Source of the DNA: Heterodontus francisci
Lineage: Eukaryota
Length of the DNA: 64,000 nucleotides
Direction of reading: 5' to 3'
Assembly (NCBI RefSeq): GCF_036365525.1
Contig: NC_090415.1
Location: 11,160,001-11,224,000 of the forward strand
The position numbers and the translations under genes are program-made. The notes beneath the pieces are model-generated. The model was given only the letters and a program-made list of their open reading frames with translations, searched no databases and was not told the origin of the DNA. This document shows positions 3,710 through 59,863 of this stretch, one piece after another; position 1 is the stretch's first letter; every line of letters begins with the position of its first letter.

Positions 3710-4796
3710 AATGAAAACAAGAAATGCTGGATATACTCAGCTGGTTTGGCAGCATCTGTGGAGCGAGAAGCAGAGTTAACATTTCAGGTCAGTGACCCTT
3801 CTTCAGAACTAGTAAATATTAGAAATGTGAAAAGTGTTAAGCAAGTAAAGCGGGGGTGGGGCAAGAGATAACAAGGGAGAAGGTGTAGAAAGGAAAATGT
3901 CACAGAATAGCTGACCAGAAGGTCATGGAGCAAAGGCAAACATTATGTTAATGGTGTGTTGAAAGTCAAAGCATTCGTACAGATAGGGTGTTAATGGATG
4001 AAAATTGAACAGCCGCAAGTACAAATATGAAAAAAAGTGGGTAAGCAAACTGAACCAACTGAGGTGATATAAAATAAAATAAATATAAAAATAAAGATAA
4101 AAAGGAAAGAATAACTAAAAATAAAAGTAAATTGGGGGGCCCGTCATGCTCTGAAATTATTGAACTCAATGCTCAGTCTGGCAGGCTGCATTGTGCCGAA
4201 TCGGTAAATGAGATGCTGTTCTTCGAGCTTACCTTGATGTTCACTGGAACACTGCAGCAATCCCAGGACAGAGATGTAAGCAGGGGGTAGTGTTGTAATG
4301 ACAAGCAACCGGAAGCTCGGGGTCATGCTTTCGGACTGAGCGGAGGTGTTACGCAAAGCGGTCACCCAGTATATGTTTGGTCTCCCCAATGTAGAGGAGA
4401 CCACATTGTGAGTAGCGAATACAGTATACCATATTGAAAGAAGTACAAGTAAATCGTTGCTTCACTCGAAAGGAGTGTTTGGGGCCTGGGATTGTGAGTA
4501 GAGAGGAGTAAAATGGGCAGGTATTACATCTCCTGTGATTGCAGGGGAAGGTGCCGTGTGAAGGGGACAAGGTGGTGGGGGTAATGGAGGAGTGGACCAG
4601 GGTGTCGCGGAGGGAATGATCCCTTCGGAATGCTGACAGGGGAAGGGAGGGGTAGATGTATTTGATAGTGGCATCACGCTGGAGGTGGCAGAAATGGCGG
4701 AGGATGATTCTTTGGATGTGGAGGCTGATGGGGTGGAAAGTGAGGACATGGGTATCCTCGGTTGAGGAAAAAGGAAGACATATCAGAAGCGCTGTC
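3710..4796 (-). mobile_element. 5'-truncated Penelope-like element (GIY-YIG endonuclease + pLTR with hammerhead core)
   Basis: ORF 4349-4798 has CxxxRCxTC and VYCIxxxxCGLLYIGET..LGDRF motifs; flanked by 15-bp TSD ATATAAATCTTTCAT (3695-3709, 4797-4811); empty site at 26983-26997. Confidence 0.88.
3774..3810 (-). ncRNA. Minimal type I hammerhead ribozyme-like motif in the Penelope pLTR
   Basis: Minus strand reads AGUU-CUGAAGA-A-GGGUCACUGACCU-GAAA-UGUU-AACU: catalytic boxes, stem II hairpin, and stem I AGUU/AACU. Confidence 0.65.
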
Positions 4797-4900
4797 ATAT
4801 AAATCTTTCATGTGGTTACTTTTGACTGCAGCTGACCAACCTTATTTGGCACGCTACATGGAGATAAGGACTTGCACTTCAATGCTCGCATTTGCCCCAC

Positions 4901-9885: not shown

Positions 9886-12205
9886 ATGTAACCATTCCAT
9901 GATTCTATCCTCCAATGGGAACATGAACGTGGTGTTAAGGTGCAGATTGAAATGGTTGAAATGACATTTGAGTTCCAATGAGCTCTGGTGTGTATACTGT
10001 ATAAATGACGAGCTACATGTATGCCAGCGATGCTGGTATAGTGGTGAGTATATCTGCCTTCCAAACAATTGACCCAGATTAGATTCCCGGTCATCGCAAT
10101 GCCCACTCGCAGTCAAATATATTTCTGCAACCTTGCTACAGAATGTGACAAATGAAAAGCTATGACTAAATTGAAGTCGACAAATATTCTCAACATTATG
10201 TTCTTCTCCCTTAAAGTTGATGGTCAAGTGTGCTGTGGAATTTTGCAGCTTAAAAATGTCAATGCAAATTCAGAAAGAAAGCTTACAAAATATTCTCAAC
10301 ATCCAATCAGATTCACTTCCTTGCTTGATCAGCGTCGCCCTGCAGCAAGTTTGTTTCCTTCAAGTGTTTATCCAGTTTCTTATTGAAATCATTGATTGTC
10401 TCTCCTTCCACCACACTTGTGGACAGCGAGGTCCAGCAGGTAAAACAGAAAAAGTTCTTCCTCACATTCCCTTCCATCTCTTGCCATAAACCATCAGTCT
10501 GTGTCTCCTAGTCCTTGTACAATCAGCTAATGGGAACAGGTTATCCTTGTCTAACTTATATACACCTCTATCAAATCTCCTCTCAATCTCCATTTCTCTA
10601 AGGAGAACAACCCCTTACTTACAGAACACAATCCAGAGTCATCTATCCAAGCTTTTCAGGTGTAAAAGAATAGTTGTGGAGTAAGTAGTATAGATAGGAG
10701 CATAAAACTAAGAGACTTTGAGAGATCAACTGATTGTCTCTGTCCAATTCACTGGATTTTCTGTATCACCTGAACACTGCTATACTCTGTGTAAAGGTTA
10801 GAGCATTTCCATGGCTTACATTTATGCAAGAACTGCTATATCAAGGCTGGATGGCAAAGCATGACGGTCATCTTCACAGAAATATGTCAAAATGCCATGT
10901 TGAGAGATGTGTCTGTGTGGATGATGCACTGAGTCACGACAAAAAGGAAAGAAAAGTCGTGCAGCAGGAGGGGGCCCACAATGTGGGGGTGATGGATCAT
11001 GACATATTTTGCCTTTGTGAATAATAAGGACAGCTAAAATAATAGGACTAATTGTATGCTATGTACATCAATATATTACAGTCTGTTTGAGCTAATGCTT
11101 GCTTCATTATGAAATGACATTACAAGGCTATAGTCCGTTAAAACCTCTATGTAAGAACAATGGGAGAGATAGGTTGAAGACCACAGCATCCTTACAGGGG
11201 GTGAGATGAGATAAATAGGACACTGTAGAATTGCAAACTCAAAATGGCTTCCATCAGCAAGAATGTGACCTTTAGTATCCTTGTTAAAATAGAAAGGAAC
11301 AGGAAGTATCTGTAATGTGTGTAGATTGAACCATTAACTAACTCGGGTCAAACAATGATGTCAAGCTGGTCCAATTCAAAGCTAATATGGGAACATTCTT
11401 GCACCCAAAGAAGGGTAAAAGAAAGGGTGTTACAGGACATTGTCGGCACTTACAGAGGGGTCCACGGAACATCGTTATCACACTTAGAAGGAGAAGATAG
11501 AGTCCGGTCAAGAAAACAGCAAGGGAAGCAGAAAGAGAGAAGTCCACGCCCCAGCAAGCACAGAAGCAAGAACCGGTGCTGAGTGATGCTGCAAACCTAT
11601 TGCTGTTGTTAAACATTCACTTTATCTATCTTAGTTAAGACTAATAAACTCTCAGACTTGATCACAGAACTTGAGTTTGTACCTTGTAGGTCTATTTTGG
11701 CCAATAATCACAGGACATTTTCTGTCGCCACTTCCCCTCTCTATTCTATCTCCCTCCTCTCGCTCTCCTCCCTATGCACTTTATTATTATTGATGATGGT
11801 CATATTGACCTATTTATTCTCCTCCATCTCAGACAGTCCCCTGCGATTATGGATGACTTTTTACACTCCAGTTTGATGGGTTCTGAAATAGCTGATAAAT
11901 CCACTGCATGATCTGCAGACTCTGCCACATGAGGGTTAGGTGGTGTTAGAAGGGTTCAGGTAAATGACCCGTTTGGAGGTATGGATGCTGCCTTCGAGCC
12001 TCGACTTCACATGTTACCGACAAATTTCCCTGAACTGTAAACTATCTTCCCAAATGAGAGATGATTTGAGGACATATCTAAAATGTTTCCACACTCAGCC
12101 AGGGGTTCTCCTGCAACGACCAATTTCTGAGCAAAACAGCTGCTTCCGGATTCTGCATTTGCAGGTTTTTGGAGAGACCCCTGTTCAGACTAAGTGATAG
12201 ACGAA

Positions 12206-12301
12206 ACAAAAACAAGAAATGCTGGATTCACTCAGCAGGTCTGGCAGCATCTGTGGAAAGAGAAGCAGAGTTAACGTTTCGGGTCAGTGACCCTTCTTCG
12301 G
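12206..12301 (-). mobile_element. 96-bp Penelope pLTR-derived element containing a hammerhead core
   Basis: 14-bp TSD AAGTGATAGACGAA (12192-12205, 12302-12315); minus strand CCGAAGA-A-GGGTCACTGACCC-GAAACGTT-AACT. Confidence 0.85.
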
Positions 12302-13319
12302 AAGTGATAGACGAATACTGACTGAACACACGTCAGTTGCTGTCTGTGAGTGAGGGGCTTTGGAAAACTTTCCCTTGTACCATGTCACAGATACAGTAAG
12401 GAAGGATGGAGTAGATGAGTCTATGTCTTTCTCCAGTACTGAATTGCAGTGGGGTGGATGTTTAATCAGTCTCTAACTGTCTCTTTTTGGGTGAGGAGGT
12501 AACAGAAAGGAGACCAGTTCCCCTCCCTGAGTACCTGTCACTGCTTCTATCCTGTGTGTGTAGGATTCACCCTGAGTCCCTCTATCCAGCTTTACCTGCT
12601 CTATCTGCAAAAGTGCTGAACCTTTCAGTTTTTGGTCTGCTCAAACCGAGTTCAAGGCCTGAGTAGTGAACAGAATGTCTCATTAATTCTTTGAATACTA
12701 ACATGATTGAACAACAGGTTATGATCGACTCGGCCAAAGATTGGAAAAATCCCCGTCCATCAATATTACAACAGGGACTGCGAGAATCTCCTGTCTCAGA
12801 GTGTTTAAGGGATACAGACCGAGGCATCGGCAACTAACCCCTGAAAATCACAGCAAAGACTGTGTACATGAGGACATTTAACAACTGGGAGCTGGGACTC
12901 TGGGACGGTCCAGCTCTATTCTCACTGTGCTTGTGTGTCCGGTGTAATCGCGTGTCTCTTGTTTAAAATAAAACGATGAAGATTGCCGTCCGGTATTACT
13001 CTCATTGACCTGGGTTTTCACTCGGGTAAAATAAAATGTTGCTGGCTGATATTAACTCTGCAAAGTCCCAGCAAACACACCGGCTCCCTCATTCTTCCCA
13101 TGTTTCTGTCGCTTTGAGAAGAGGGGCTCAATAGTAACAAACACCCTGCAGACAGAGTCCGCAATTTGAGCATCTAAATGGGACCAGCTGCCAGTTTTAT
13201 ATGTTCCATGTTCCCCCACACTTCCCCTCCCTCCCTCCACCCTAACCACATGTTTGACTTTTCAATGTGGACATTGGGAGATGTTCCCATTGATGTTTAT
13301 TTGCTGAATTATTGCAGAG

Positions 13320-13475: not shown

Positions 13476-13766
13476 ACAAACAGTATCTGCTCACAGCAGT
13501 ACAACAGATTTGGGCCCGTGTCTGCCGATGTGCTCATAGATTAGCATTGATTACCGGGTACATTCAGTGGGAGTGGGGGACAGTTTGTAATGTACATTGT
13601 GGAGCAGGAACTGGTCCTGGAACATGGAGTGAGCTGGGGGGTGGGGGGGGGGGGAAGGGAGAGGTCTTTCTCAGGCAGTGTCTGGCCAGGGAGAGAGAGA
13701 CAGAATATGATGAACTCACTATTGAAAATCATTGCTGATTTCTCTCTCCAAACAGTAATGAATGTT

Positions 13767-14232
13767 ATAATTAAAAGCAAAATACTGCGGATGCTGGAAA
13801 TCTGAAATAAAAACAAGAAATGTGGCGCAGTGGTTAGCACCGCAGCCTCACAGCTCCAGCGACCCGGGTTCAATTCTGAGTACTGTCTGTGTGGAGTTTG
13901 CAAGTTCTCCCTGTGTCTGCGTGGGTTTTCTCCGGGTGCTCCGGTTTCCTCCCACAAGCCAAAAGACTTGCAGGTTGGTCGGCAAATTGGCCATTATAAA
14001 TTGCCCCGAGTATAGGTAGGTGGTAGGGAAATATAGGGACAATTGGGGATGTGGTAGGAGTATGGGATTAGTGTAGGATTACTATAAATGGGTGGTTGAT
14101 GGTCGGCACAGACTCAGTGGGCCGAAGGGCCTGTTTGAGTGCTGTATCTCTAAACTAAACTAAACTCAGCAGGTCTGGCTGTATCTGTGGAGAGAGAAGC
14201 AGAGTTAACGCTTCAGGTCAGTGACCCTTCTT
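13767..14232 (-). mobile_element. Short Penelope pLTR-derived element with hammerhead core, containing a nested SINE
   Basis: TSD CAGTAATGAATGTT (13753-13766, 14233-14246); empty paralogous site near 19680-19691. Confidence 0.8.
13822..14166 (+). mobile_element. HE1-type SINE
   Basis: tRNA-like head GTGGCGCAGTGGTTAGCAC..GGTTCAATTC, V-domain, tail GGGCCGAAGGGCCTG..(CTAAA)n. Confidence 0.92.
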
Positions 14233-15589
14233 CAGTAATGAATGTTCCTGGTTCAGATCCAGTATCTCACTATTTATTGTTATTGGATATTGAATAGCAG
14301 AAAAAAATGTCTGAACAATAAAGATGCGGCAGATTTGAAGGGACCAGGTGAGAAGATTAAAGACACTTTTTTAAACAGTGCTTACTTGTTGTCCGTTGAA
14401 CAATGGGACATGGAAATAGTAATCTGGCTTACACAAATGTCGTGACTCGATCGGGTATTCCAATTCATGGAGCAGTGCGGGGCTTGGGGTGTTTCTGAAT
14501 GTCACAAAATTGTTATAAAACCGCTCCAAATACCTGGCAAGTAGAAGCAGAGTTCTGCAGTACTGCAGTGGACTCAGACACTGACACTGCTTGTGTTGTT
14601 GACTTTCCTTTTGTGATTGTTCAGAATGTTTATTATTGTAAAGATTACATTGATCACTTTTCTGTCTTCTCACTCAGCTGTTATTCAAGTATAAGAGTTA
14701 ACTTTCTTTTCCTGCAGGCAAACACTTGAAGGAACCAGAAGGAAAGGCATGACTCCTCGACAGAAGGAAATGTGCATCCAGCTCGTTGCAATACACAGTA
14801 GGTACAGTATCAGTCACAAAGCACACTGACATGGTCAGGTCGTCATTTTCAGTGTAACAAACAAAAGAAGTAGTCAGACCCACACTGATCCCAAAGAGAC
14901 ACATTATCAATTCAATAGTCAAACAGAGCATTAGAGATAGTCGTCATTTCTATTTCACTCCAACTGACTGGTAGATATATCAATCACAGTCCAAAAACAC
15001 ACGCATTATCAGATTTAAATACATTGTGTTGCCTTGACTACAATTCAATTCCCAAATCTTAAGTAGAACAGACAAAATGTACCTGATTGAATGCTACAGA
15101 ATGAATCCCAATAACGTACCCCACACTATAAACTGAGCTTCAAATTACACATCAGTCCAAACATGTTACTGAGGGTCAGACAAAAACACATAGGATTAAT
15201 TCATTTTCTACAAACGGATGGAATTTGACATTACATATCAGGTCATGTTCTAAAATTAAAAGCTCGTCATTCATAATTGCTTTTTCAGAGCGACAATTGG
15301 ATACCAAACTGCAACTCAAACAAGAATTGCATAAAACCTACAGCAATCAAATTTTGTTTATCCATATTTTAAATTAAACACATATTGATACATTAACGTG
15401 TGAAACAAAGCATTGCCAACACAGTGCCTGAAATATATATTAAGTCCTGAATACAGCAGGATCTCAACTCACATACAGCACAAAGACACATAGATGCAGA
15501 GTGAATCCTACACTCAACCAGGGTGCCAGAGCCTCACAGATCAGGAATGAATCAAATATACAGACATAGTATCAGTAACTTGCATATAC

Positions 15590-16399: not shown

Positions 16400-19300
16400 C
16401 TTACACTCCAAAAGACTGGTGTGGGAGAAGTGGGGTTCAGTTCATGGGGCACTGGCACCATTACCGGAGAAAATGGGGGCTGTACCATTCTGACGGTCTG
16501 CACCTGAAACGGCTTGGACCAGTGTTCTGGCAAACTGCATAACTAGGGAAATAGAGAGGGCTTTGAACTAAACAGAGGGATCAAGCTTGGGTAGATGCAA
16601 CAAATCAAGGGGTAGAGTCAAGGTCAGAGAGCAGAATAGTAATATGGGAAATGAAGACCAGTGAATGGCGGAAGGGACAGAGAGAAAAAAACCTAAGAAC
16701 ACACCAACAGTCCACACGAGGGGTTACAAAGATAATAAAAATCTAAGGCTCTGTATGTGAATGCACATAGCATTCATAACAAGGTAGAGGAACAGATAGT
16801 GCACATTGAAGTAAATCAATATGATATAATAGCCATTACAGAGACTTGGCTACAAGATAACAATGGTTGGGTCCTGAATACTGAGGCATATACAGCATTC
16901 AAGAAGAATAGGAAGCTAGGTAAAGGTGGAGGGGTTGCAATGTTAATCAAGGATGGCATTGGTGCAATAGTTAGAGATGACCTTGCTTCAGGAGATCAGG
17001 ATGTAGAATTGGTTTGGGTGATGATGAGGAATAGTCGGAGAAAGAAGTCACTCGTGGGAGTTGTGTACAGGCCCCCAAGCAATAATGACAATGTAGGGTG
17101 AAGTATACAAGAAGAAATTTTGGGTGCTTGTGATAAAGGGATAGAAATAATAATGAGGATTTTGTTCAACATTTCAACCGGAAAATTCAGACTGGTTATA
17201 GCAGCCTGGACGAGGAGTTCATAGAATGCTTTTTGAGATAGTTTCTTAGAGCGGTACATTCTGGAACCATCCAGCCAGGGTTATATTAGATTTGCTATTG
17301 TGTAATTTAACAGGGTTCATTAATGACGAGTATTTTAAACTTAAATAAGGACAACAATGTGGGCATGCCAGCTGAACTAGCTGAATTGAACGGGGTTTCT
17401 AGGCTTGGAGATAAATTAATAGAGAAGCAGTGGCAGACATTTAAGGGGATATTTCAGAATACTCAAAGTATATTCCTACAGTAAAGTAAAATTCCAAGTG
17501 GAGGACCCATCATCCATGGTTAACTAAAGAAGTTAATGATAACCTCAGCCTTAAAGAAAATGCATATAATTGTGCAAAGACGAGTGGCAGGTCAGATGAT
17601 TGGTCAGAATATAATGAATGGCAGAGAATGACTAAAAGGTTAATCAGGAGAAAATAAATTAGATTATGACAGAAAATTAGCCAGAAATGTAAAAACGGAT
17701 AGCAAGTGTTTCTATAGGTATTTAAAAAGGAAAAGTGTAAGTAAAGTGAGTGTTCGTCATTTAGAGAATGAGAATGGGGAGTTAATAGTAGCGAATAAGG
17801 AAATGGTGGTTGAAATGAACAATTATTTGGCTTCTGTCTTCACTAGAGGATACACAAAATATTTCAGTAATAGCAGTAAATCAGGAGGTGGAAGGAAGAG
17901 AGGAACTTGGTGAAGTTACAATCACCAGGGAAGTGGTACTGAGTAAACTGATGGAGCTGCTGGCTGACAAGTCTCTGGGTCCTGATGGGCTTCATCCTTG
18001 GGTCCTTAAAGTTATGGCTGCTGAAATAGTTGATTCGTTATTTTTTCAAGATTCGCTAGATTCTAGAAAGGTTCCATCAGACTGGAAAGTAGCAAATATA
18101 ACCCTTCTATTCAAGAAGGTGGGGAGGCAGAAATTGGGTAACTATAGGATAGTTAGCTTGACCCCTGATTCAGGGAAGGCGTTAGAATTGATCATTAAGG
18201 AGGCTATAGCTGGGCATTTAGAAAAACACAAGGTTATTGGAAATGTTCAGCATGGCTATGTGAAAGGGAAATCATGGTTAATCAAAGTATTAGAGTTCTT
18301 TCAAGGAGGAAAATGCACTGGGGATAAAGGGGAGCCCATTGACATATAGTATTTGGTTTTCAAGAAGGCCTTTGTCAAGGTGCCACATGAAAGGTTATTG
18401 TGCAAAGCAGGAGTTCATGGTGTAGTGGGTAACTTAATTAGCATGGATAGAAGATTGGCTGGCTGACAGAAAACATTCTGATCGGGAGGATGTGATAAGT
18501 GGAGTAACACAGGGGTCTGTGCTGGGCCCACAACATTTTACACTTTATATCCATAACCTAGATGAGGGGAGCAATGGCATGGCAGTTAAATTTGCAGATG
18601 ACACACAGATCGGTAGGAAAGTGTGTTGTGGAGAGGACATAAGGAGGTTGCAGACCTTGATAGATGGTTGAGTGAGTGGTCAGAAATCTGGCAGATGAAG
18701 TATAATGTGAAAAAATGTGAAGTTGTTCACTTTGTCTGGAAGATTAAAAAAACAAAGTATTACTTAAATGGAGAACAACTGCATAATTCCGAGGTGCAGA
18801 GGGATCTAGGTGTTCTGGTGCATGAGTCATGAAAAGTTAGTATGCAGGTACAGCAAGTCATCAAGAAGGAAAATGGAATACTATCCTTTATCATGAGAGG
18901 AATTGAAAATAAATGGAAGAATGTTATGCTTCAGTTATACAGGGCATTGGTGTGACCACATCTTGAATACTGCATGCAGTTTTAGTCTCCATATTTCAGG
19001 AAGGAAGTAAATGTGTTGGAGGCGTTTCACAGGAGGTTTATTAGATTGATACCTGGAATGAGTGGGATGTCTTATGAGGAAAGGTTGGACAGACTGGGCT
19101 TTTCTTCACTGGAGTTTAGAAGAGTGAGGGGAGACTTGATTGAAGTGTATAACATCCTGAATGGTCTTGACAAGTGGATGGGGAAAGGATGTTTCCTCTT
19201 GTGGATGAGTTCAAAACTCGGGGATGCTGTTTTCGAATTTGGGGTCACCATTTTAGGACAGAGATGAGATTTATTTCTCTCCGAGGGCTGTGCAACTTTG

Positions 19301-19500: not shown

Positions 19501-21245
19501 TTCAGCAGGACTGGGGGACTGTTTGTAATATGCACTGTGAAGCAGGAACTGGACCCGGAACATGGAGTGAGCCAGGGGAAAGGGAGAGGTCTTTCTCGGG
19601 CAGTGTCTAGACAGGGAGAGAGAGACAGAATATGATGAACTCCCTTTTCAAAATCATTGCTGATTTCTCTCTCCAAAGTGTAATGAATGTTCCTGGTTTG
19701 GATTCAATATCTCACTGTTTGTTGTTGTTGGATAGTGAATTGGGTGGCAGAGTGGCACAGTGACTAGCACCGCAGCCTCACAGCTCCAGTGACATTGGTC
19801 CGGTTCTTCGTACTGCTTGTGTGGATTTTGCAACTTTTCCCTGTGACTGCATGGGTTTCCGCTGGGTGCTCTGGTTTCCTTCCACATGCCAAAGACTTGC
19901 AAGTTGATTGGTAAATTAGCCATTGCAAAAAAAGAAATGCCCCTGGTGTAGGTATGTTGTAGGAGAATAGTGGGGACTTTAGAGGGAAAAATGGGATTAA
20001 TATAGGATTGGTATAAATGGGTGGTTGATGGTCAGGAAGGACTCGATGGGCTGAAGGGCCTGTTTAGGTACTGTATATCTCTATAAATGGCGGAAAAAAA
20101 TGGCTGAATAATGGAGACACGGCAGATTTTCAAAGGCTGTCTATTGCAGGATCAGGAGAGGAGATTAAGGACACTTTTTTAAACAGTTATTACTTCTTGT
20201 CCATTGAACAATTGGACATGGAAATAGAACTCTGGCTTGTGCAAATGTCACTTCTCCATTGAGTCGTCCGATTCATTGAGCACTGCGGGGCATGGGTTGT
20301 TTCTGAATGTCACAAAATTGCTGTAAAACTGCTCCAAATACCTGGGAAACAGAAGCAGAGTACTGCAGTGGACTCAGACACTGACACTGCTTATGTGTGA
20401 ACTTTCCTTTTGTGATTGCTCAGAATGATTATTATTGAAAATATTACATTGATTACTTTTGTGTCTTCTCACTCACCTGTTCTTCAAGTGTAAGAGTTAC
20501 CTTTATTTTCTGCCAGGCAAACACTTGAAGGAACCAGAACGAAAGTCATGACTCATCAATAGATGGAAAAGTACCTCCAGCTCGTTCCAACACATATTAG
20601 GTACAGTATCAGTCACAAAGCACAGTGACACAGTCAGGTCATCATTTCCACTGTAACAAACAAAAGAAGTAGTCAGACCCACACTGATCCCAAAGAGACA
20701 CATTATCAATCCAATAGTCAAACAGAGCATCGAGATAGTATTTGTTTCTATTTCTCTCCAACTGACTGGTAGATACATGATTCACAGTCCAAAAACACAC
20801 ACATTATCTGATTTAAATACACTGTGTCACCTTGGCTACAATTCAAATACCAAATCTTAAACAGAACAGACAAAATGTACCTGATTGAAAGCTACAGAAT
20901 GAATCCCAATAACATACCCCACAATATAAACTGAGCTACAAATTACACACCAGTGTAAACATGTCACTAAGGGTCAGACAAAAATATACACGATTAGTTA
21001 ATTTACTACAAACCGATGGAATTTAACATTACATGTCAGGTCATACTCTAAAATTGAAAGATTGTCATTCACAATTGCTTTTGCAGAGATACAAATTGGA
21101 TAAAAAGCTACAACTCACAAACAAGAATTGAATAAAACCTACAGCAATAAAACATTGTTAATCCATATTTTAAATTAAACACAAGTAAACACATATTGAT
21201 ACATTAACGTGTGAAACAAAGAGTTGTCACCACAATGCCTGAGAT
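19501..21245 (+). repeat. Local duplicate of about 13563-15430
   Basis: Colinear unique sequence (e.g. GCAAACACTTGAAGGAACCAGAA at 14718 and 20517) carrying different TE insertions. Confidence 0.88.
19742..20085 (+). mobile_element. HE1-type SINE (older copy)
   Basis: Head, V-domain and tail all recognisable. Confidence 0.85.
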
Positions 21246-24199: not shown

Positions 24200-26720
24200 A
24201 ACCAGAAGAGATCAATAAATCAAATGGCAGATACAGCATGAATCCCAACTTCCCATTGCAGTGACTGACATGCACAGAGTAAAACTATCATCTATTTAGC
24301 AGAAGTTAACAAGCACCCTTCAAATGTACACTCACAGAGTAGTAACTGTCAGTTCAAGGCAGAAGCAGATTCACACACAACAAGATGAAAGATACAATGT
24401 GAACCTCATACTTAAATACCAGAAGCTGATGAGTATACAGTAAAACTTGCAATAGGATACCAGACACAGACAGATAGATAAAAGACAATATCACATAGCA
24501 GAATCTGACAAGTGCAGAGTAAACTGTATAGTAGCATATCAGAGAGTGACCGTAAAAGTGTAAATCAAGCACTACCATAAACCAACAAGTACAGAATAAT
24601 GACCATCCTCACAAGAGTGATTCTGATAGATACAGGGGAAATGTTACCCTCACCATAGATGCACAGAAACAGAATACAACATATACACATAAAGTAACTG
24701 AGGCACATAGCAAAATCCACATTGAGAAACATACAGGGAAAGTAAAACACATACTCACAAATCATGCACAGACAAAAGCCACATTCACATTACAGAGACT
24801 GGCAGATACAGAGGAAAACCCACAATCAATTACCACAAACAAAATGTTACAGAATAAAACAGATATTTGCATTGCAGTAACTGACAACATGCTAGGTAAA
24901 ATCCACATTTACATATCAGAAACCAAAGGTTAAAGATTAATCCCACATTCATTTGCCAGAATATACGATGTACAGTGGAAATAAAAACAGAAAATGCTGG
25001 AAATAATCTGCAAATCTGGTAGCACCTGTGGAGAGAGAAAGTGAGTTAACATTTCAGGTCAATGACCTTCGATCAGAACAGACCTTTCTGATGAAAGACC
25101 ATTGACCAGAATGGTTATCTCTGTTTCTGTCTCCACAGATGCTGGCAGGCCTGCTGAGTATCTGTGGAGAATGACTGCAGAATTCTGAGGTGCAGAGGGA
25201 TCTAGGTGTTCTTGTGCTTGAGTCACAAAAAGTTAGTATGCAGGTATGGCAAATCACAAAGGCAATTGGAAAGTTATCCTTTATTACAACAGGAATTGAA
25301 AATTAATCTAAGGATGTTATGCTTCAGTTATACGGGGCTTTGGTGAGACAGGTCTTGATAGATTCTTGTTCGGCAAGGGAATCAAAGATTATTGGGAGGA
25401 GATAGGAGTGTGGAATTCAAGTCAGAAACAGATCAGCCATGATTTAATGTAAGAAGCAGGAGGTTTAGAGTGGATTTGAGGATTTTTTTTTTTAATTTCA
25501 TTTTTACCCAGATGGTGGTTGGAATCTGGAACACATTACCTGAAAGGGGTGGTAGAGGCAGGACCCCACACAACACTTAAGAAGTATTTAGATATACATT
25601 TGAAAGGCCATAGCATACAAGGCGATGGGCCAAGTACTGGAAAATGGGATTAGAATAGATCACTGATTGTGCCTGTGCCGGCCATCAATGTGTCTAAGGG
25701 CCTGTTTCTGTGCTGTATAACTCTATGGCTCTATCTCTCGATGACAAATACAAAGTAAAACCAACATTCACATCGCAGAACTTGGCAGATTGAAAGCAAA
25801 TCCACCATACAGTTCAGCAGAAACTGACAGAACAGAAAGAACACATAATCACATACCATAAATTGGCATAGAGAATAAAATTCACATGCCCGTACCAGAA
25901 ATTAACTTGTCCAGATGAAAATCCATAATCATACAGCAGAGAGTGAGCTGTACTATTAAACCCAGCTGCTGCACTTGAGGCTAATATGCACAGAGTAAAA
26001 ACAATGCTCATGTCTCATACCAGAAACGGCCAGCCGTAGATCACAACCCACACTCACATATCAGAACAGGCAGGTACAGTGTAAAATATCTCTTAATGAA
26101 CCACTGACAGGGACGTGATACAGTCCACATTCATTCATCAGAAACTTACAGATACAGATAATAAACAGTACTTACATACAACAGATTGAAAGGAACAGGT
26201 TAAAACCCATCCTTATATGAAGACGTCTGATGGGTACAGAACACAGGTGAGGCCCCCAAACCAGAGACTGACATGTCGAGTGAAAACAACGCTGGCATGT
26301 CATCAATTAACATGTGCAGTGTAAAGCTACACAAAAATGTCACTTACTAACAGATACAGAGACAAAATCAAACAACCTTTCATCCCAGAAACTGACAGGT
26401 GCAGATTAAAATCCAAATTCACAATTCAGAAATTAACAAATAAAGAGAAATGCCCAGACTCCAAAATCAGATATTAACAGATACATAACAAAACCCACAC
26501 TCACTCAGTCGAAGCTCATAGGTACAGAACAAAACTCATAATCACCCACTTAGAAACTGAATGTTACAGAGAAAGAAAAAAAAACAATCACCTGTTGAAG
26601 ATTGAAATTACTGAATTAAATCACAAAATCATTGACCATAGATTGACCAATACGGAGTAAAAGCCACAGTTAAATATCACATACTGATAGGCACAGAATG
26701 AAACCCACAATCACATGTCC
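24200..26720 (+). repeat. Decayed ~40-41 bp tandem array, interrupted at about 24975-25740 by TE pieces
   Basis: Same periodic motif; 25740-27000 is paralogous to 2473-3709, and 24200-25160 to about 49180-50155. Confidence 0.65.
24979..25162. mobile_element. Head-to-head inverted pair of Penelope pLTR ends, each with a hammerhead-like core
   Basis: GCTGGAAATAATCTGC..TGTGGAGAGAGAAA mirrored by TTTCTGTCTCCACAGATGCTGGCAGGCCTGCTGAGTAT; CTGATGA at 25088. Confidence 0.75.
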
Positions 26721-42589: not shown

Positions 42590-42970
42590 AAAGAAGCGCA
42601 TGCGCGTTAAAGCCCCGCCCACACCTCTGATCGTTGATGACTGACAGAGCGCATGCGCTCCCCTGTGCCTGCAAGGCTATTGAACGGCATTTATTCAAAG
42701 AGGGGAAAGCGTTTGTTTTTAACAGAGGGAATGGAGATATTACAGTATCGGGGTAAGTCAGCAAACAGCAGTCTCCTTCCAGCAGCACTTTGTTTGGGGA
42801 AACTTGTCCGCAATCTGGCTCAGAGATCGTCATTGACTTTGGGGCAAGTTCAGGAGGGTTGCGAGTTGTTTGCAAGAGACAGAGTGAGGCAGGAAGTGAT
42901 CCGGTAACATGGAGTGAGCGGCGGAAGGCAGAGGCATTTCTTGGGCTGCGTGTGCACTGCGTAAGTGAGA
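42590..42970 (+). promoter_or_regulatory. CpG-rich promoter-like segment: two GCGCATGCGC (42596, 42649), GC box, splice donor GTAAGT (42753)
   Basis: Motifs seen directly; paralogous to 13320-13700. Confidence 0.6.
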
Positions 42971-43104
42971 CAAAACGTGAAGAAGCTGCTGTTGAAATTC
43001 ATGGCTGTTTTTATCCTCAAACCTGTAATGCTTGTTCCTGGTTTAGCTCCTATTTCACGCTGTTTGTTGTTATTGACAAGTGAATAGTGAAAACAGAGCC
43101 GGAC

Positions 43105-46169: not shown

Positions 46170-49083
46170 GAGATATACAGTGAAACTTACACCCGCCAAG
46201 ACTGGTGTGGGAGAAGTCAGGTTCAGTTTGTGGGGCACTGGCACCAGCACTAGTGAAAGTGGAGGCTGTACCGTTCGAACAGTCTATACCTGAACTGAGC
46301 TGGGACCAGTGTTCGAGAAAACCATATAACTAGGGATGTAGAGAGGCACTTGATCTAATCAAAGGGGTAGAGGGATCAAGCTTTAGTAGATGTAACAAAT
46401 CAAGGGTTAGAGTCAGTGCAGGAGAACACAATAGTAACAGGGGAAATGAAGGCCAGTGAATGGCAGGAAGGGGCAAAGAGAAAAAAAACCTAAGAGCAGA
46501 CCGACAGTCAACACTAGATGTGACAAAGATAACAAAAAGGTAAAACCAAAGGCTCTTTATGTGAATGCACATAGCGTTCATAACAAAGTAGAGGAACTGA
46601 TAGCACATGTTGATGTAAATAAATATGATCTCATAGCCATTATGGAGACATGGTTGCAGGATGACAAGGATTGGGTCCTCAATATTGATGGATATATAAC
46701 ATTCAAGAAGAACAGGAAGCGAGGTAAAGGTGGAGGGGTGGCACTGTTAATCAAGGATCGTATTGTTGCAATAGTTAGACATGACCTTGGTTCAGGAGAT
46801 CAGGATGTAGAATCGGTTTGAGTGGAGATGAGGAATAGTCAGGGAAAAAGGCACTCGTGGGAGTCGTCGACAGGCCCCCAGACAGTAATCACAATGTAGG
46901 ATGAAGTCTTCAAGAATAACTAATGGGTGCTTGAGATAAAGGGATGGAAATAATCATGGGTGATTTTAGTCAACATATAAACTGGAAAAAATCAGATTGG
47001 TAATCGAAGCCTGTATGAGGAGTTCATAGAATGCTTTCGAAATCGTTTCTTCGAGCAGCATGTTCTAGAACCATCCGGCGAGCAGGTTATTTTCGACTGG
47101 GTATTGTGCAATTTGACAGGATTAATTAATGACCTCAGATAAAGGCACCTCTTGGTAGCAATGATCACAATGTGACTGAAGTTTGCATCCAGTTTAAAAG
47201 TGAGAGGAGTGTGTCTAAGACTAGTATTGTAAACTTAAATAAGGGCAACTATGTGGGCATGAAAGCTGAGCTAGCTGAAGTGAACTGGGTTACTGGGCCA
47301 GGAGATAGTTCAATTGAGAAGCAGTGGCAGACATTTAAGTGGATATTTCAGAATACTTAAAATAAGTATATCCCTACTATAAAGAATAATTCCAAGGGGA
47401 GGATCCCCCATCCATGGTTGATTAAAGAAGTTAAGGAAGGCATCAACCTGAATGAAAAGGCAGAGAATTGTGCAAAGATGAATGGCAGGTCAGATGATTG
47501 AGTCATTCTGTGCCATTCTATATATTCTGACCAAAGGTTAATCAGGAGAAAAGAAATTAGAGCATGGGAGTAAGCTAGCTAGAAATCTAAAAACGGATAG
47601 CAAGGGTTTCTGCAGGTATTTGAAAAGGAAAAGTTTAAGTAAATTGAGTGTTGGTCCTCTATGGAATGAAAATTGGGAGTTAACGTTTGGTAATAAGAAA
47701 ATGGCAGAAGAAATGAATAAAAAAATTCCTTCTGTCTTAACAATAGCGGAGACAAAAATCATTCCCGTAATAGCTGTAAATCAAGAGGTGGATGGAAGAG
47801 AGGAACTTGTTGAAATTACAATCACCAGGGAAGCAGCACTGAGTAAACTGATGGAGCTGTGGGCTGACAAGTCCCTGGGTCCTGTTGGTGTTCATCCTAG
47901 TGTCTTAAAATGGTGGCTACTGAAGTCATAGATTTGTGGGTGTTAATTTTTCAAAATTCGTAAGATTCGGGAAAGGTTGCTTCAGACTGGACTGTAGAAA
48001 ATATAACCCCTCTATTCGAGAAGGTAGGGAGGCAGAGAAAGGGTAACTATAGTAATCTTAAAGCAAAATACTGCAGATGCTGGAAATTTGAAATAAAAAC
48101 AATAAATGTGGGAAATACTCAGCAGGTCTGGCAGCATCTGTGGAGAGAGATGCAGAGTCAACATTTCAGGTCAGTGACCCTTCATCAGGGTAACTATAGA
48201 CCCCGATAGCTTAACCCCTGTGATCAGGAAGGTGGTAGAATTGCTCAATGAGGAGGCTACAGCTGGGCATTTAGAAAAACACAAGGTCATCAGGAATATT
48301 CAGCATGGTTTTGTGAAGAGGTAATCATGTTTAACTGATTTATTGAAGTTCTTTGAAGGACTAACATGCGGTGTGGATAAAGGGGAATCCTTTGACATAA
48401 AGTACTTGGATTTCCAGAAGGTATTTGACAAGGTGCCACATAAAAGGTTATTGTGCAATGTATGAGCTCATGGCGTGGTGGGTAACATATTGGCATGGAT
48501 AGAAGGTTGACTGGCTGGCAGAAAACAGAGAATGCATAAATGGGTCCTTTTCTGATTGGCAGGATGTGACAAGTGCTGGGATCTCCACTTTTTACAATTT
48601 ATATCAATGATTTAGATGAGGGGAGCGATAACATGGCAGCTAAATTTGCAGATGAAACAAAGATAGGTAGGAAAGTATGTTGTGAAGAGGACATAAGGAG
48701 GTTGCAGATTGATCTAGATTGGTTGAGTGACAGGGCAGAAATCTGGCAGATGATGTACAATGTGAGAAAATGTGAAGTTGTTCACTTTGTCAGGAAGATC
48801 AAAAGATACATCAGTGTCGCGTGACTGCAGAATTCTGGGGTGCAGAGGGATCTAGGTGTTCTGGTGCATGAGTCAAAAATGTTAGTGTGCAGTTACAGCA
48901 AGACATAAAGAAGGCAAATGGAATGCTATCCATTATTATGAGAGGAATTGAAAATGACAATAAGCCTGTTATACTTCAGTTATACAGGTCATTGGTGAGA
49001 CCACATCCAGAATACTGTGTGCAGTTTTGGTCTCCTTTAAGGAAGGAAGTAAATGTGTTGGAGGCGGTTCAAAGGAGGTTTAC
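46170..49083 (+). mobile_element. Old CR1-clade LINE, paralog of 16400-19500
   Basis: KYDLIAIMETWLQ, KFADETKIG and [15 protein letters not shown]; same 5' flank. Confidence 0.88.
48053..48186 (-). mobile_element. 134-bp Penelope pLTR-derived element with hammerhead core
   Basis: 13-bp TSD AGGGTAACTATAG (48040-48052, 48187-48199); empty site in the paralogous CR1 near 18136-18147; minus strand CTGATGA-A-GGGTCACTGACCT-GAAA. Confidence 0.85.
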
Positions 49084-49974
49084 TTCAGAGAAGTGAGCGT
49101 AACAGCTAACCGGAAGAAAAAGACACAAACTCAAATACCAGAGAATGAGGGTTACAGAGTAAAACCCACACTCACTTATCAGTAATAGCCATTTTCAGAA
49201 TTAAAAACCTTTCCCATCTTCCCATTGCAGCGACTGACATGCACAGAGTAAAACTAACAGTTATTTAGCAGAAATTAACAAGCACACTTGTAAATGTACA
49301 CTCACAGAATAGAAACTGTCAGTTCAAGGTAGAAGCAGATTCACACAGATCAAATTGAATGTTACAATGTTAACTCCATAATTAAATACCAGAAGCTGAT
49401 GGGCACACAGTAAATCTTACAATAGCATACCAGACGCAGACAGACAGTGAAACAACATTATCACAGAGTGGAATCTGACAAGTGAAGAGGAAAATTTACA
49501 GTAGCATATCAGGGAATGAGAGGGAAAGAGTAATTCAAGCAGTACCATAAACCAACAAGTGCAGAATCATGGCCATACAAAGAAGTGTGATGCTGATAGG
49601 TACAGGGAAAATATTACACTCACAACAGATGGACAGAAACAGAATAAAGCACATACACATAAAGTAACTGAGGTACATAGCAAAATCCACATTTACATGT
49701 CAGAAACAGACACAGAGAGCAAAACACACACTCACAAATTGTACACAGATAAATACAGAGTAATAGCCACATTCACATTACAGAGACTGGTAGATGTAGG
49801 GTCAAACCCACAATCAGTTACCACAATCATAAAGTTACAGAATAAATCAGATAATTGCACTGCAGGAACTGACAACATGCTGGGTCAAATCCTCATTTGC
49901 ATATCAGAACTGAAAGGTTAAATATTGATCCCACATTCACTTGCCAGAAAATGTACATCTCCATGTACAGTGTA

Positions 49975-50212
49975 AATGAAAATGGAAAATGCTGGAAATA
50001 CTCTGCAAGTCTGGCAGCACCTGTGGAGAGAGAAATTCAGTTCACATTTCAGGTCAATGACCTTTGATCAGGACAGACCTTTCTGATGAAAGGTCATTGA
50101 CCTGAAAGGCTAATTCTGTTTCTGTCTCCACAGATGCTGGCAGTCCTGCTGTGTATTTACAGAATTTTCTGCTTTAATTTCCAATTTCCAGCATTAACAG
50201 TATTTTGCTTTG
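49975..50212. mobile_element. Head-to-head inverted Penelope pLTR pair with hammerhead cores
   Basis: Plus-strand CTGATGA-A-AGGTCATTGACCT-GAAA at 50083-50107, mirrored at 50047-50071. Confidence 0.78.
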
Positions 50213-58789: not shown

Positions 58790-59863
58790 AATGCTGGATA
58801 TACTCAGCTGGTTTGGCAGCATCTGTGGAGAGAGAAGCAGAGTTAACATTTCTGGTCAGTGACCCTTCTTCAGAACTGGTAAATATTAGAAATGTGAAAG
58901 GTTTTAAGCAAGTAAAGCGGGGGTGGGGCAAGAGATAACATGGGAGAAGGTGTAGAAAGGAAAATGTCACAGAATAGCTGACCAGAAGGTCATGGAGCAA
59001 AGGCAAACATTATGTTAATGGTGTGTTGAAAGACAAAGCATTCGTACAGATCGGGTGTTAATGGATGAAAATTGAACAGCCGCAAGTACAAATATGAAAA
59101 AAAGTGGGTAAGCAAACTGAACCAACTGAGGTGATATAAAATAAAATAAATATAAAAATAAAGATAAAAAGGAAAGAATAACTAAAAATAAAAGTAAATT
59201 GGGGGGCCCGTCATGCTCTGAAATTATTGAACTCAATGCTCAGTCTGGCAGGTTGTATTGTGCCTAATCGGTAAATGAGATGCTGTTCCTCGAGCTTACC
59301 TTGATGTTCACTGTAACACTGCAGCAATCCCAGGACAGAGATGTAAGCAGGGGGGAGTGTTGAAATGACAAGCAACCGGAAGCTCGGGGTCATGCTTTCG
59401 GACTGAGCGGAGGTGTTACGCAAAGCGGTCACCCAGTATATGTTTGGTCTCCCCAATGTAGAGGAGACCACATTGTGAGCAGCGAATACAGTATACCATA
59501 TTGAAAGAAGTACAAGTAAATCGCTGCTTCACTCGAAAGGAGTGTTTGGGGCCTGGGATTGTGAGTAGAGAGGAGTAAAATGGGCAGGTATTATATCTCC
59601 TGTGATTGCAGGGGAAGGTGCCATGTGAAGGGGACAAGGTGGTGGGGGTAATGGAGGAGTGGACCAGGGTGTCGCGGAGGGAATGATCCCTTCGGAATGC
59701 TGACAGGGGAAGGGAGGGGAAGATGTATTTGGTCGTGGCATCACGCTGGAGGTGGCAGAAATGGCGGAGGATGATTCTTTGGATGTGGAGGCTGATGGGG
59801 TGGAAAGTGAGGACAAGGGTATCCTCGGTTGAGGAAAAAGGAAGACATATCAGAAGCGCTGTC
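58790..59863 (-). mobile_element. Penelope-like element (copy of 3710-4796; its terminal bases lie at 56141-56156)
   Basis: GIY-YIG ORF 59416-59865; TSD at 56126-56140 and 59864-59878; hammerhead-like core at 58841-58877. Confidence 0.88.

Follow-up and report, generated by a model that had tools for sequence, protein, structure and literature searches.

Short Insertions That Begin at a Hammerhead Motif in Heterodontus francisci: Possible Run-Off Products of a Penelope-Like Element

Three short insertions in a histone gene cluster

The window analyzed here is a 64,000-nucleotide stretch of the Heterodontus francisci genome (NC_090415.1, positions 11,160,001 to 11,224,000). Nine histone 3' stem-loop matches, eight of them above the gathering score, lie between 6712 and 63203 along with triplicated blocks, which marks the window as a duplicated histone gene cluster. 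The window also holds three short insertions, here called stubs. We numbered them in the element sense, which is the window minus strand, with +1 as the first base 3' of the predicted GUU cut of a hammerhead motif; on this scale the core base C3 is -29 and the 5' strand of helix I spans -33 to -30.

Stub 1 (12206..12301, minus strand, 96 bp) runs from -29 to about +67 and has a U4C core, stem II, an intact GAAACGUU box, and the short tail end. Its 14-bp TSDs match exactly, at 12192..12205 on the tail side and at 12302..12315 on the core side, the latter overlapping the element by 2 nt (-31/-30). By sequence, the putative hammerhead core and stem II occupy 12272..12301 on the minus strand, with the predicted cut at 12273/12272 and an incomplete 5' strand of helix I. 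Stub 2 (13767..14232, minus strand) is a 466-bp insert with the long tail end and exact 14-bp TSDs at 13753-13766 and 14233-14246. Nested in it is a tRNA-type SINE (about 13824-14163), which took the place of about 8 bp of its target and has no visible TSD; without the SINE, stub 2 measures about 126 bp, which corrects the figure of about 120 bp in an earlier, sequence-only reading of the window. Stub 3 (48053..48186, minus strand, 134 bp) also has the long tail end and is flanked by exact 13-bp TSDs at 48040-48052 and 48187-48199.

That reading had described three insertions with TSDs of their own, empty paralogous sites for two of them, and a 2- to 3-nt overlap between TSD and core, and all of this holds. 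Stub 2 has one empty site at 19588..19740 (plus strand, 89.5%) and a second, more diverged one at 42964-43087 (72%), and stub 3 has one at 18045..18234 (plus strand, 83%); none was found within the window for stub 1 (12206-12301). The overlaps are 2, 3, and 2 nt in stubs 1, 2, and 3, and when these are counted the 5' ends lie at -31, -29, and -29, respectively. A shared CUGA(A/U)GA core had also been proposed; the boundary is indeed near the core, but the 12206 copy reads CCGAAGA (U4C). As the 5' strand of helix I (-33 to -30) is complete in 0/3 stubs and the GAAACGUU box is altered in stub 2 (GAAGCGUU) and stub 3 (GAAAUGUU), the window stubs are best regarded as incomplete ribozymes.

Longer and paired copies occur in the same window. 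A 5'-truncated parent copy at 3714..4807 (minus strand) contains the endonuclease end of an open reading frame (ORF), the 3' untranslated region (UTR), a complete hammerhead, and a tail, and its A(-33), the putative start base discussed below, is position 3810. A paralogue at 58790..59367 (minus strand) is 97% identical to it over these aligned coordinates alone. Two stubs lie head to head at 49974..50211, with arms ending at about -36 and -31, and the pair is duplicated with the same junction at 24969..25161.

The parent element and its hammerhead motif

The 6.0-Gb genome contains 88,769 exact occurrences of a 28-mer taken from a stub (all genome-wide counts were made with exact patterns). 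In tandem arrays of the parent, the unit is 3290-3296 bp long; its open frame spans 904-924 codons, contains RT motifs, and has its ATG about 140 nt beyond the predicted cut. The sole Pfam match of this ORF is RVT_1, with an E value of 6.4e-6 and 26.5 bits, under the cutoff of 29.6. At the C terminus, the translation contains VY...YIGET...RF.EH, which has no Pfam match and is a candidate GIY-YIG endonuclease motif. It is preceded by a C-x4-C-x2-C linker, the Neptune/Nematis criterion as given in the accessible part of PMC8557442. Tandem or partial-tandem and inverted pLTR structures with an optional tail are also present in the family. These features fit an intact 3.3-kb EN+ Penelope-like element (PLE), of the Neptune/Nematis type as judged by motif. 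As far as that source describes them, Neptune/Nematis elements share with the present one the RT, the Cys-rich linker, the partial tandems, the inverted 5'-truncated copy, the optional 30- to 40-bp tail, and the pLTR hammerhead, and their C-terminal GIY-YIG domain has a candidate counterpart here. The difference lies in the 5' ends: 5' truncation is described there as variable, whereas here a dominant 5' end at helix I yields solo insertions of 100-140 bp.

An Rfam scan of the window returned no hammerhead at an E value of ≤1, and we therefore assigned the motif by direct inspection. The minimal type I hammerhead, with core boxes, stem II, palindromic helix III, and helix I, is complete in the parent and incomplete in the three window stubs, which agrees with the proposal that the stubs derive from a Penelope pLTR carrying such a motif. 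Both the element type and the hammerhead motif are already known (for the hammerhead type, PMC4209133 and PMC6765202). The PLE hammerheads of metazoans in the accessible text of PMC4209133 likewise have the core boxes, an extra base between 9 and 10.1, a palindromic helix III, and a 4-bp helix I, and they also occur mostly as single motifs and close opposite-strand pairs, attributed there to truncated PLEs. The present element differs in that its youngest subfamily has U4C and an older subfamily has A10.1-U11.1; copy ends are not mapped in that text.

The stem II pairs are retained in 285-299 of 303 copies. Variation is confined to the 10.1-11.1 pair (GC in 202, GU in 63, and AU in 28 of the 303), where GU may represent CpG decay and AU a single subfamily change. 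Intact arrays carry U4C, a substitution reported to reduce hammerhead activity in vitro (PMC3088659). The predicted minimum-energy fold of the monomer is not a stable hammerhead, and cofolding of two copies gives a predicted symmetric dimer at -26 kcal/mol. In the young subfamily (unit of locus L083, -56 to -13), a hairpin is predicted in which upstream bases can pair with stem II and the core of the hammerhead. Such a hairpin could keep the ribozyme inactive in read-through RNA, but not in an RNA starting at -33.

Where copies end: two tail positions and the start of helix I

As an unbiased sample, we mapped the ends of 100 copies containing the exact 28-mer, at the loci of the first 100 places listed (contig C1, 0.26-7.1 Mb). 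The 3' ends fall into two classes, with 55 at +58 to +80 and 43 at +98 to +120, and 1 past +120. At the other side, the numbers of copies ending among those at risk are 4/100 in +1 to +16, 11/96 in -25 to -1, 36/85 in -37 to -26, 7/49 in -60 to -38, 7/42 in -200 to -61, 9/35 in -600 to -201, and 14/26 in -1200 to -601. The rate in the -37 to -26 interval is thus 3.5% per nt, 30-60 times the 0.06-0.12% per nt over -1200 to -61. The breakpoint mapping that the sequence-only reading had proposed as a check accordingly gave a pile-up and not a uniform spread, in line with its claim that the shared boundary is nonrandom. Within -37 to -26 the ends are scattered, with -33, -32, and -31 about equally frequent, and the interval surrounds the first base of helix I, 33 nt ahead of the predicted cut. 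Exactly at +1 we found 0 of the 100 sampled copies, and with the 4/100 in +1 to +16 there is no second pile-up at the cut site. Self-cleavage therefore cannot account for the boundary, as had been suspected. At many hotspot junctions, 6- to 11-nt reiterations of the first bases of the element, or runs of 2-4 G, can be seen, as if RT had re-annealed repeatedly close to the end of the template.

The pile-up is seen in young and older subfamilies alike. We applied a genome-wide filter that required nonelement bases at three upstream test positions. Of 39,730 matches to the young core, 6,474 had no upstream element sequence by this filter; for the older core, the corresponding numbers were 10,806 and 1,975. 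The same filter on a 3' UTR control gave 783/23,181, a figure inflated by indel variants and by one amplified junction, the latter making up about half of the first 100 control matches listed. This inverted Penelope 3' UTR junction has been amplified many times over, in clusters a few kilobases apart (L269-L279 on contig C1, 235.6-236.1 Mb, and contigs C5, C7, and C8). Since the filter is estimated to pass about 0.4 of random flanks, roughly 40-45% of core-matched copies would start at the hotspot.

We parsed 346 copies, of which 107 were hotspot copies; the loci were partly chosen by pattern and are biased to the young subfamily. An inverted partner accompanies 42 of the hotspot copies, and for 13 of them element sequence in direct orientation was flagged on the upstream side. 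TSDs of at least 8 bp flank 30 of the 65 noninverted hotspot copies, compared with 9 of 300 shuffled flank pairs, and short microhomology is found at the 5' join of stubs. The partner arms of the inverted copies end at -36 to -25 in 22/42 cases (pairs being counted from both sides). An outer TSD, with a mode of 14 bp, is present in 15/22 head-to-head pairs, so that each pair represents a single event, in which both strands were probably primed. An antisense template that primes itself, as described in the accessible part of PMC3846280, was also considered as their origin. Twin priming is the better fit, given the outer TSDs and the position of the ends of both arms at tail sites.

A proposed run-off model for the stubs

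The explanation that we favor, with some confidence, is that the stubs are run-off cDNAs: RT would prime internally near the 5' end of an uncut, presumably capped RNA and run off its start. In this model, A(-33), with which helix I of the hammerhead opens, would be the transcription start. The RT of the element would prime from a nick in the target DNA and begin copying at either of two internal positions in the tail, about 68 or 105 nt beyond the predicted cut; having copied 100-140 nt of the uncut RNA, it would arrive at the putative cap. Priming on both target strands would give head-to-head pairs, and jump copies would result if RT moved from the cap to an RNA 3' end or to an internal site. 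For long copies the model needs another kind of template, namely read-through, multimeric, or circular RNA, with -33 lying inside the molecule. This class has to be assumed, because 29/31 copies that cross the ORF extend past -33, although copies of ORF-length mRNA would be expected to start there if most of that mRNA began at -33. From our own data the model draws on the parent, the two 3' classes, the 5' pile-up, the TSDs, the 5' microhomology, and the haplotypes common to short and long copies.

Internal priming at two tail sites and uncleaved RNA as the main substrate are carried over from Poseidon PAc, a PLE of Anolis carolinensis, as described in the accessible part of PMC11167929. There, RT starts at two neighboring internal positions on the 3' side of the hammerhead, and these define the PLE tail; the two 3' end classes found here match them. 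In that system both target strands are cut and extended, uncleaved RNA is used, and the product length is set by the template 5' end, to which we liken the present case. Poseidon PAc belongs to a different clade, however, and its hammerhead overlaps the ORF start, whereas the ATG here is about 140 nt past the cut; in the portion of that paper available, neither a start site nor a genomic run-off class is reported. In the openly accessible main texts examined, we found no account of PLE 5' ends piling up at helix I and none of run-off copies as a class.

Promoter-like signals are consistent with a start at -33. On its sense strand, the 3290-nt unit has TATAA at two places, one of which (-62) precedes A(-33) by 29 nt. 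A(-33) itself is the A of a match to the initiator YYANWYY, of which there are 6 in the last 300 nt. The older subfamily has mostly TTAAAA or a decayed sequence at the TATA position, and the conserved AG is also compatible with helix I pairing and with a splice acceptor. According to the accessible parts of the respective papers, a TATA and Inr-like pair was noted in a rotifer pLTR (PMC3846280), and the start of Drosophila virilis Penelope sits in the pLTR (PMC2377424). The D. virilis promoter is TATA-less, and its start precedes helix I by 46 bp and a 75-bp intron, whereas here the start would be at helix I itself. The RNA data covered 8 of 23 listed runs, all as assembled contigs, in which transcript starts are not visible; the drop of summed contig depth near -33 was set aside as evidence, as it reflects copy number.

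A single untemplated G precedes A(-33) in 3/11 jumps that leave from -33/-34 and in 0/27 others (P = 0.02); locus L343 was left out of the jump count, having been found with a G-selecting pattern. An extra G marks capped full-length junctions in L1 (PMC11702581), and we regard the cap signal here as modest. At TSD-flanked loci, the extra G is no commoner than an extra A (single G in 2/9 and single A in 2/15). In the older subfamily, G stands ahead of AGTT in 13/21 non-C cases among 100 strings listed, scored by eye and unsorted for inversions. The genome-wide excess of G before AGTT (1,084 versus 787 for A or T) was rejected as cap evidence; it is inflated, as 17/30 G-class loci are inverted joins, 7 of which parse with a templated G.

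Template end versus trimming or arrest

Whether RT meets a template end or a stall at the hammerhead can be judged from copies that approach the site a second time. An ORF-start set of 92 copies was collected from 90 of the first 100 listed places, and 8/52 at risk end in -37 to -26. Among copies that cross the whole ORF, as far as the DNA examined shows, only 2/31 stop at the second hammerhead (a hand count, with one rearranged copy excluded); the remaining hotspot enders of this set are jump copies. When jumps leave from -33/-34, the upstream arm restarts at -39 to -27 in 6/11 cases, compared with 1/22 other readable jumps (P = 0.0025).

Much of the same data would be explained if a longer RNA were trimmed from 5' to 3' by an exonuclease as far as a folded or protein-bound hammerhead, leaving an uncapped physical 5' end at -33. 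Trimming accounts for a boundary that falls just where helix I begins, for the passage of ORF-crossing copies through the site, and for the stop that recurs in jump copies. In these copies the upstream arms mostly end at +170 to +300, as a footprint would, and in the anole element the ribozyme is helped by the PLE protein (accessible part of PMC11167929). We nevertheless hold it to be unlikely: it does not predict the TATAA 29 nt upstream or the initiator match, the extra G at -33 jumps favors a cap, and the monomer is not predicted to fold as a stable hammerhead.

Improbable to a higher degree is RT arrest at the hammerhead beside the priming site, caused by RNA structure or a bound protein, with the RNA continuing upstream. 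A local ribonucleoprotein would fit a stop that is strong only at the first hammerhead met (36/85 versus 2/31), and in the young subfamily the upstream bases can pair with the core. The passage of most ORF-crossing copies through the site argues against simple arrest, however. Moreover, RT copies the entire motif before it stops and does not halt at the 3' side, a second pass in jump copies ends at the same position (6/11), and the upstream hairpin bases differ between subfamilies that both show the pile-up. The sequence-only reading had offered RT arrest or template jumping at the ribozyme, and a transcription start was not among its options; jumping does occur at the boundary and looks like a consequence of reaching the RNA 5' end, but plain arrest is weakened.

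No separate family of stubs

The other proposal of that reading was a nonautonomous ribozyme-bearing family, SINE-like or a retrozyme monomer, moved in trans by the Penelope protein. The very high copy number, the uniform sizes, and the TSDs would suit such a family, and nonautonomous retrozymes derived from PLEs are known (bioRxiv 10.64898/2026.07.22.740005). However, short (n = 93) and long (n = 156) copies have alleles in common at similar frequencies, zero alleles are specific to short copies, and 37/93 short copies are identical to some long copy over -29 to +60. Nearest-neighbor separation of short from long copies was not detected (0.538 versus a null of 0.533 ± 0.024; 84/200 shuffles reach the value). 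The common haplotypes speak against a separate family, and stubs are present in every subfamily examined. The upstream TATA is missing from them, many are without helix I, and they do not form tandems. The sequences thus already largely refute the proposal, to which we give very little credence, and on this comparison the stubs are real fragments of the intact Penelope-type element and not a distinct mini-element. The non-LTR retrozymes of the above preprint, as far as its accessible text goes, resemble the stubs in their PLE pLTR origin and type I hammerhead. They are tandem units with a complete hammerhead in each, whereas the stubs are single or head to head, TSD-flanked, often without helix I, and form no lineage; we therefore did not classify the stubs as non-LTR retrozymes.

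The least probable alternative is a splice acceptor (AG at -33/-32) with stubs copying spliced RNA, which has in its favor a branch-point-like CTAAY and a pyrimidine run ahead of the AG and the D. virilis Penelope intron that ends at the 5' end of helix I (PMC4209133), and against it the many stubs that contain the A or G of the AG, the lack of shared exon-1 sequence ahead of stubs, and the finding of no splice-type joint at the boundary among the joints listed (RNA contigs, 8 runs).

Implications and jump products

Tens of thousands of stubs record both where copying started and where the template ended, which bears on how PLEs replicate and on what their hammerhead does. If the run-off reading holds, the RNA of the element starts at the first base of the ribozyme and is copied uncut, and internal priming makes the commonest insertion of the family a dead-end by-product. 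It would also give a route from PLE to partial tandems and retrozymes. One extension, which is tentative and on balance doubtful, is a step resembling strong stop: in PLEs, RT would begin close to the 5' end of the capped mRNA and copy as far as the cap, where the hammerhead starts; the product would then be integrated as a stub or transferred to an RNA 3' end. The start and the downstream cut would together define a 33-nt terminal repeat for this transfer, and the same jumps would build partial tandems and new retrozyme-like units.

For jumps outside the hotspot, the landing point in the ORF (+170 to +300) shifts downstream as the leaving point shifts upstream; similar pyrimidine-rich stretches, spaced about 330 nt from each other, account for part of this trend. 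At L239, L258, L162, L252, L072/L153, and L167, all on contig C1, repeated identical jump junctions have produced hammerhead-containing direct repeats of 255-430 bp (one of 1.5 kb), which look like nascent retrozyme units from circular templates or repeated jumps.
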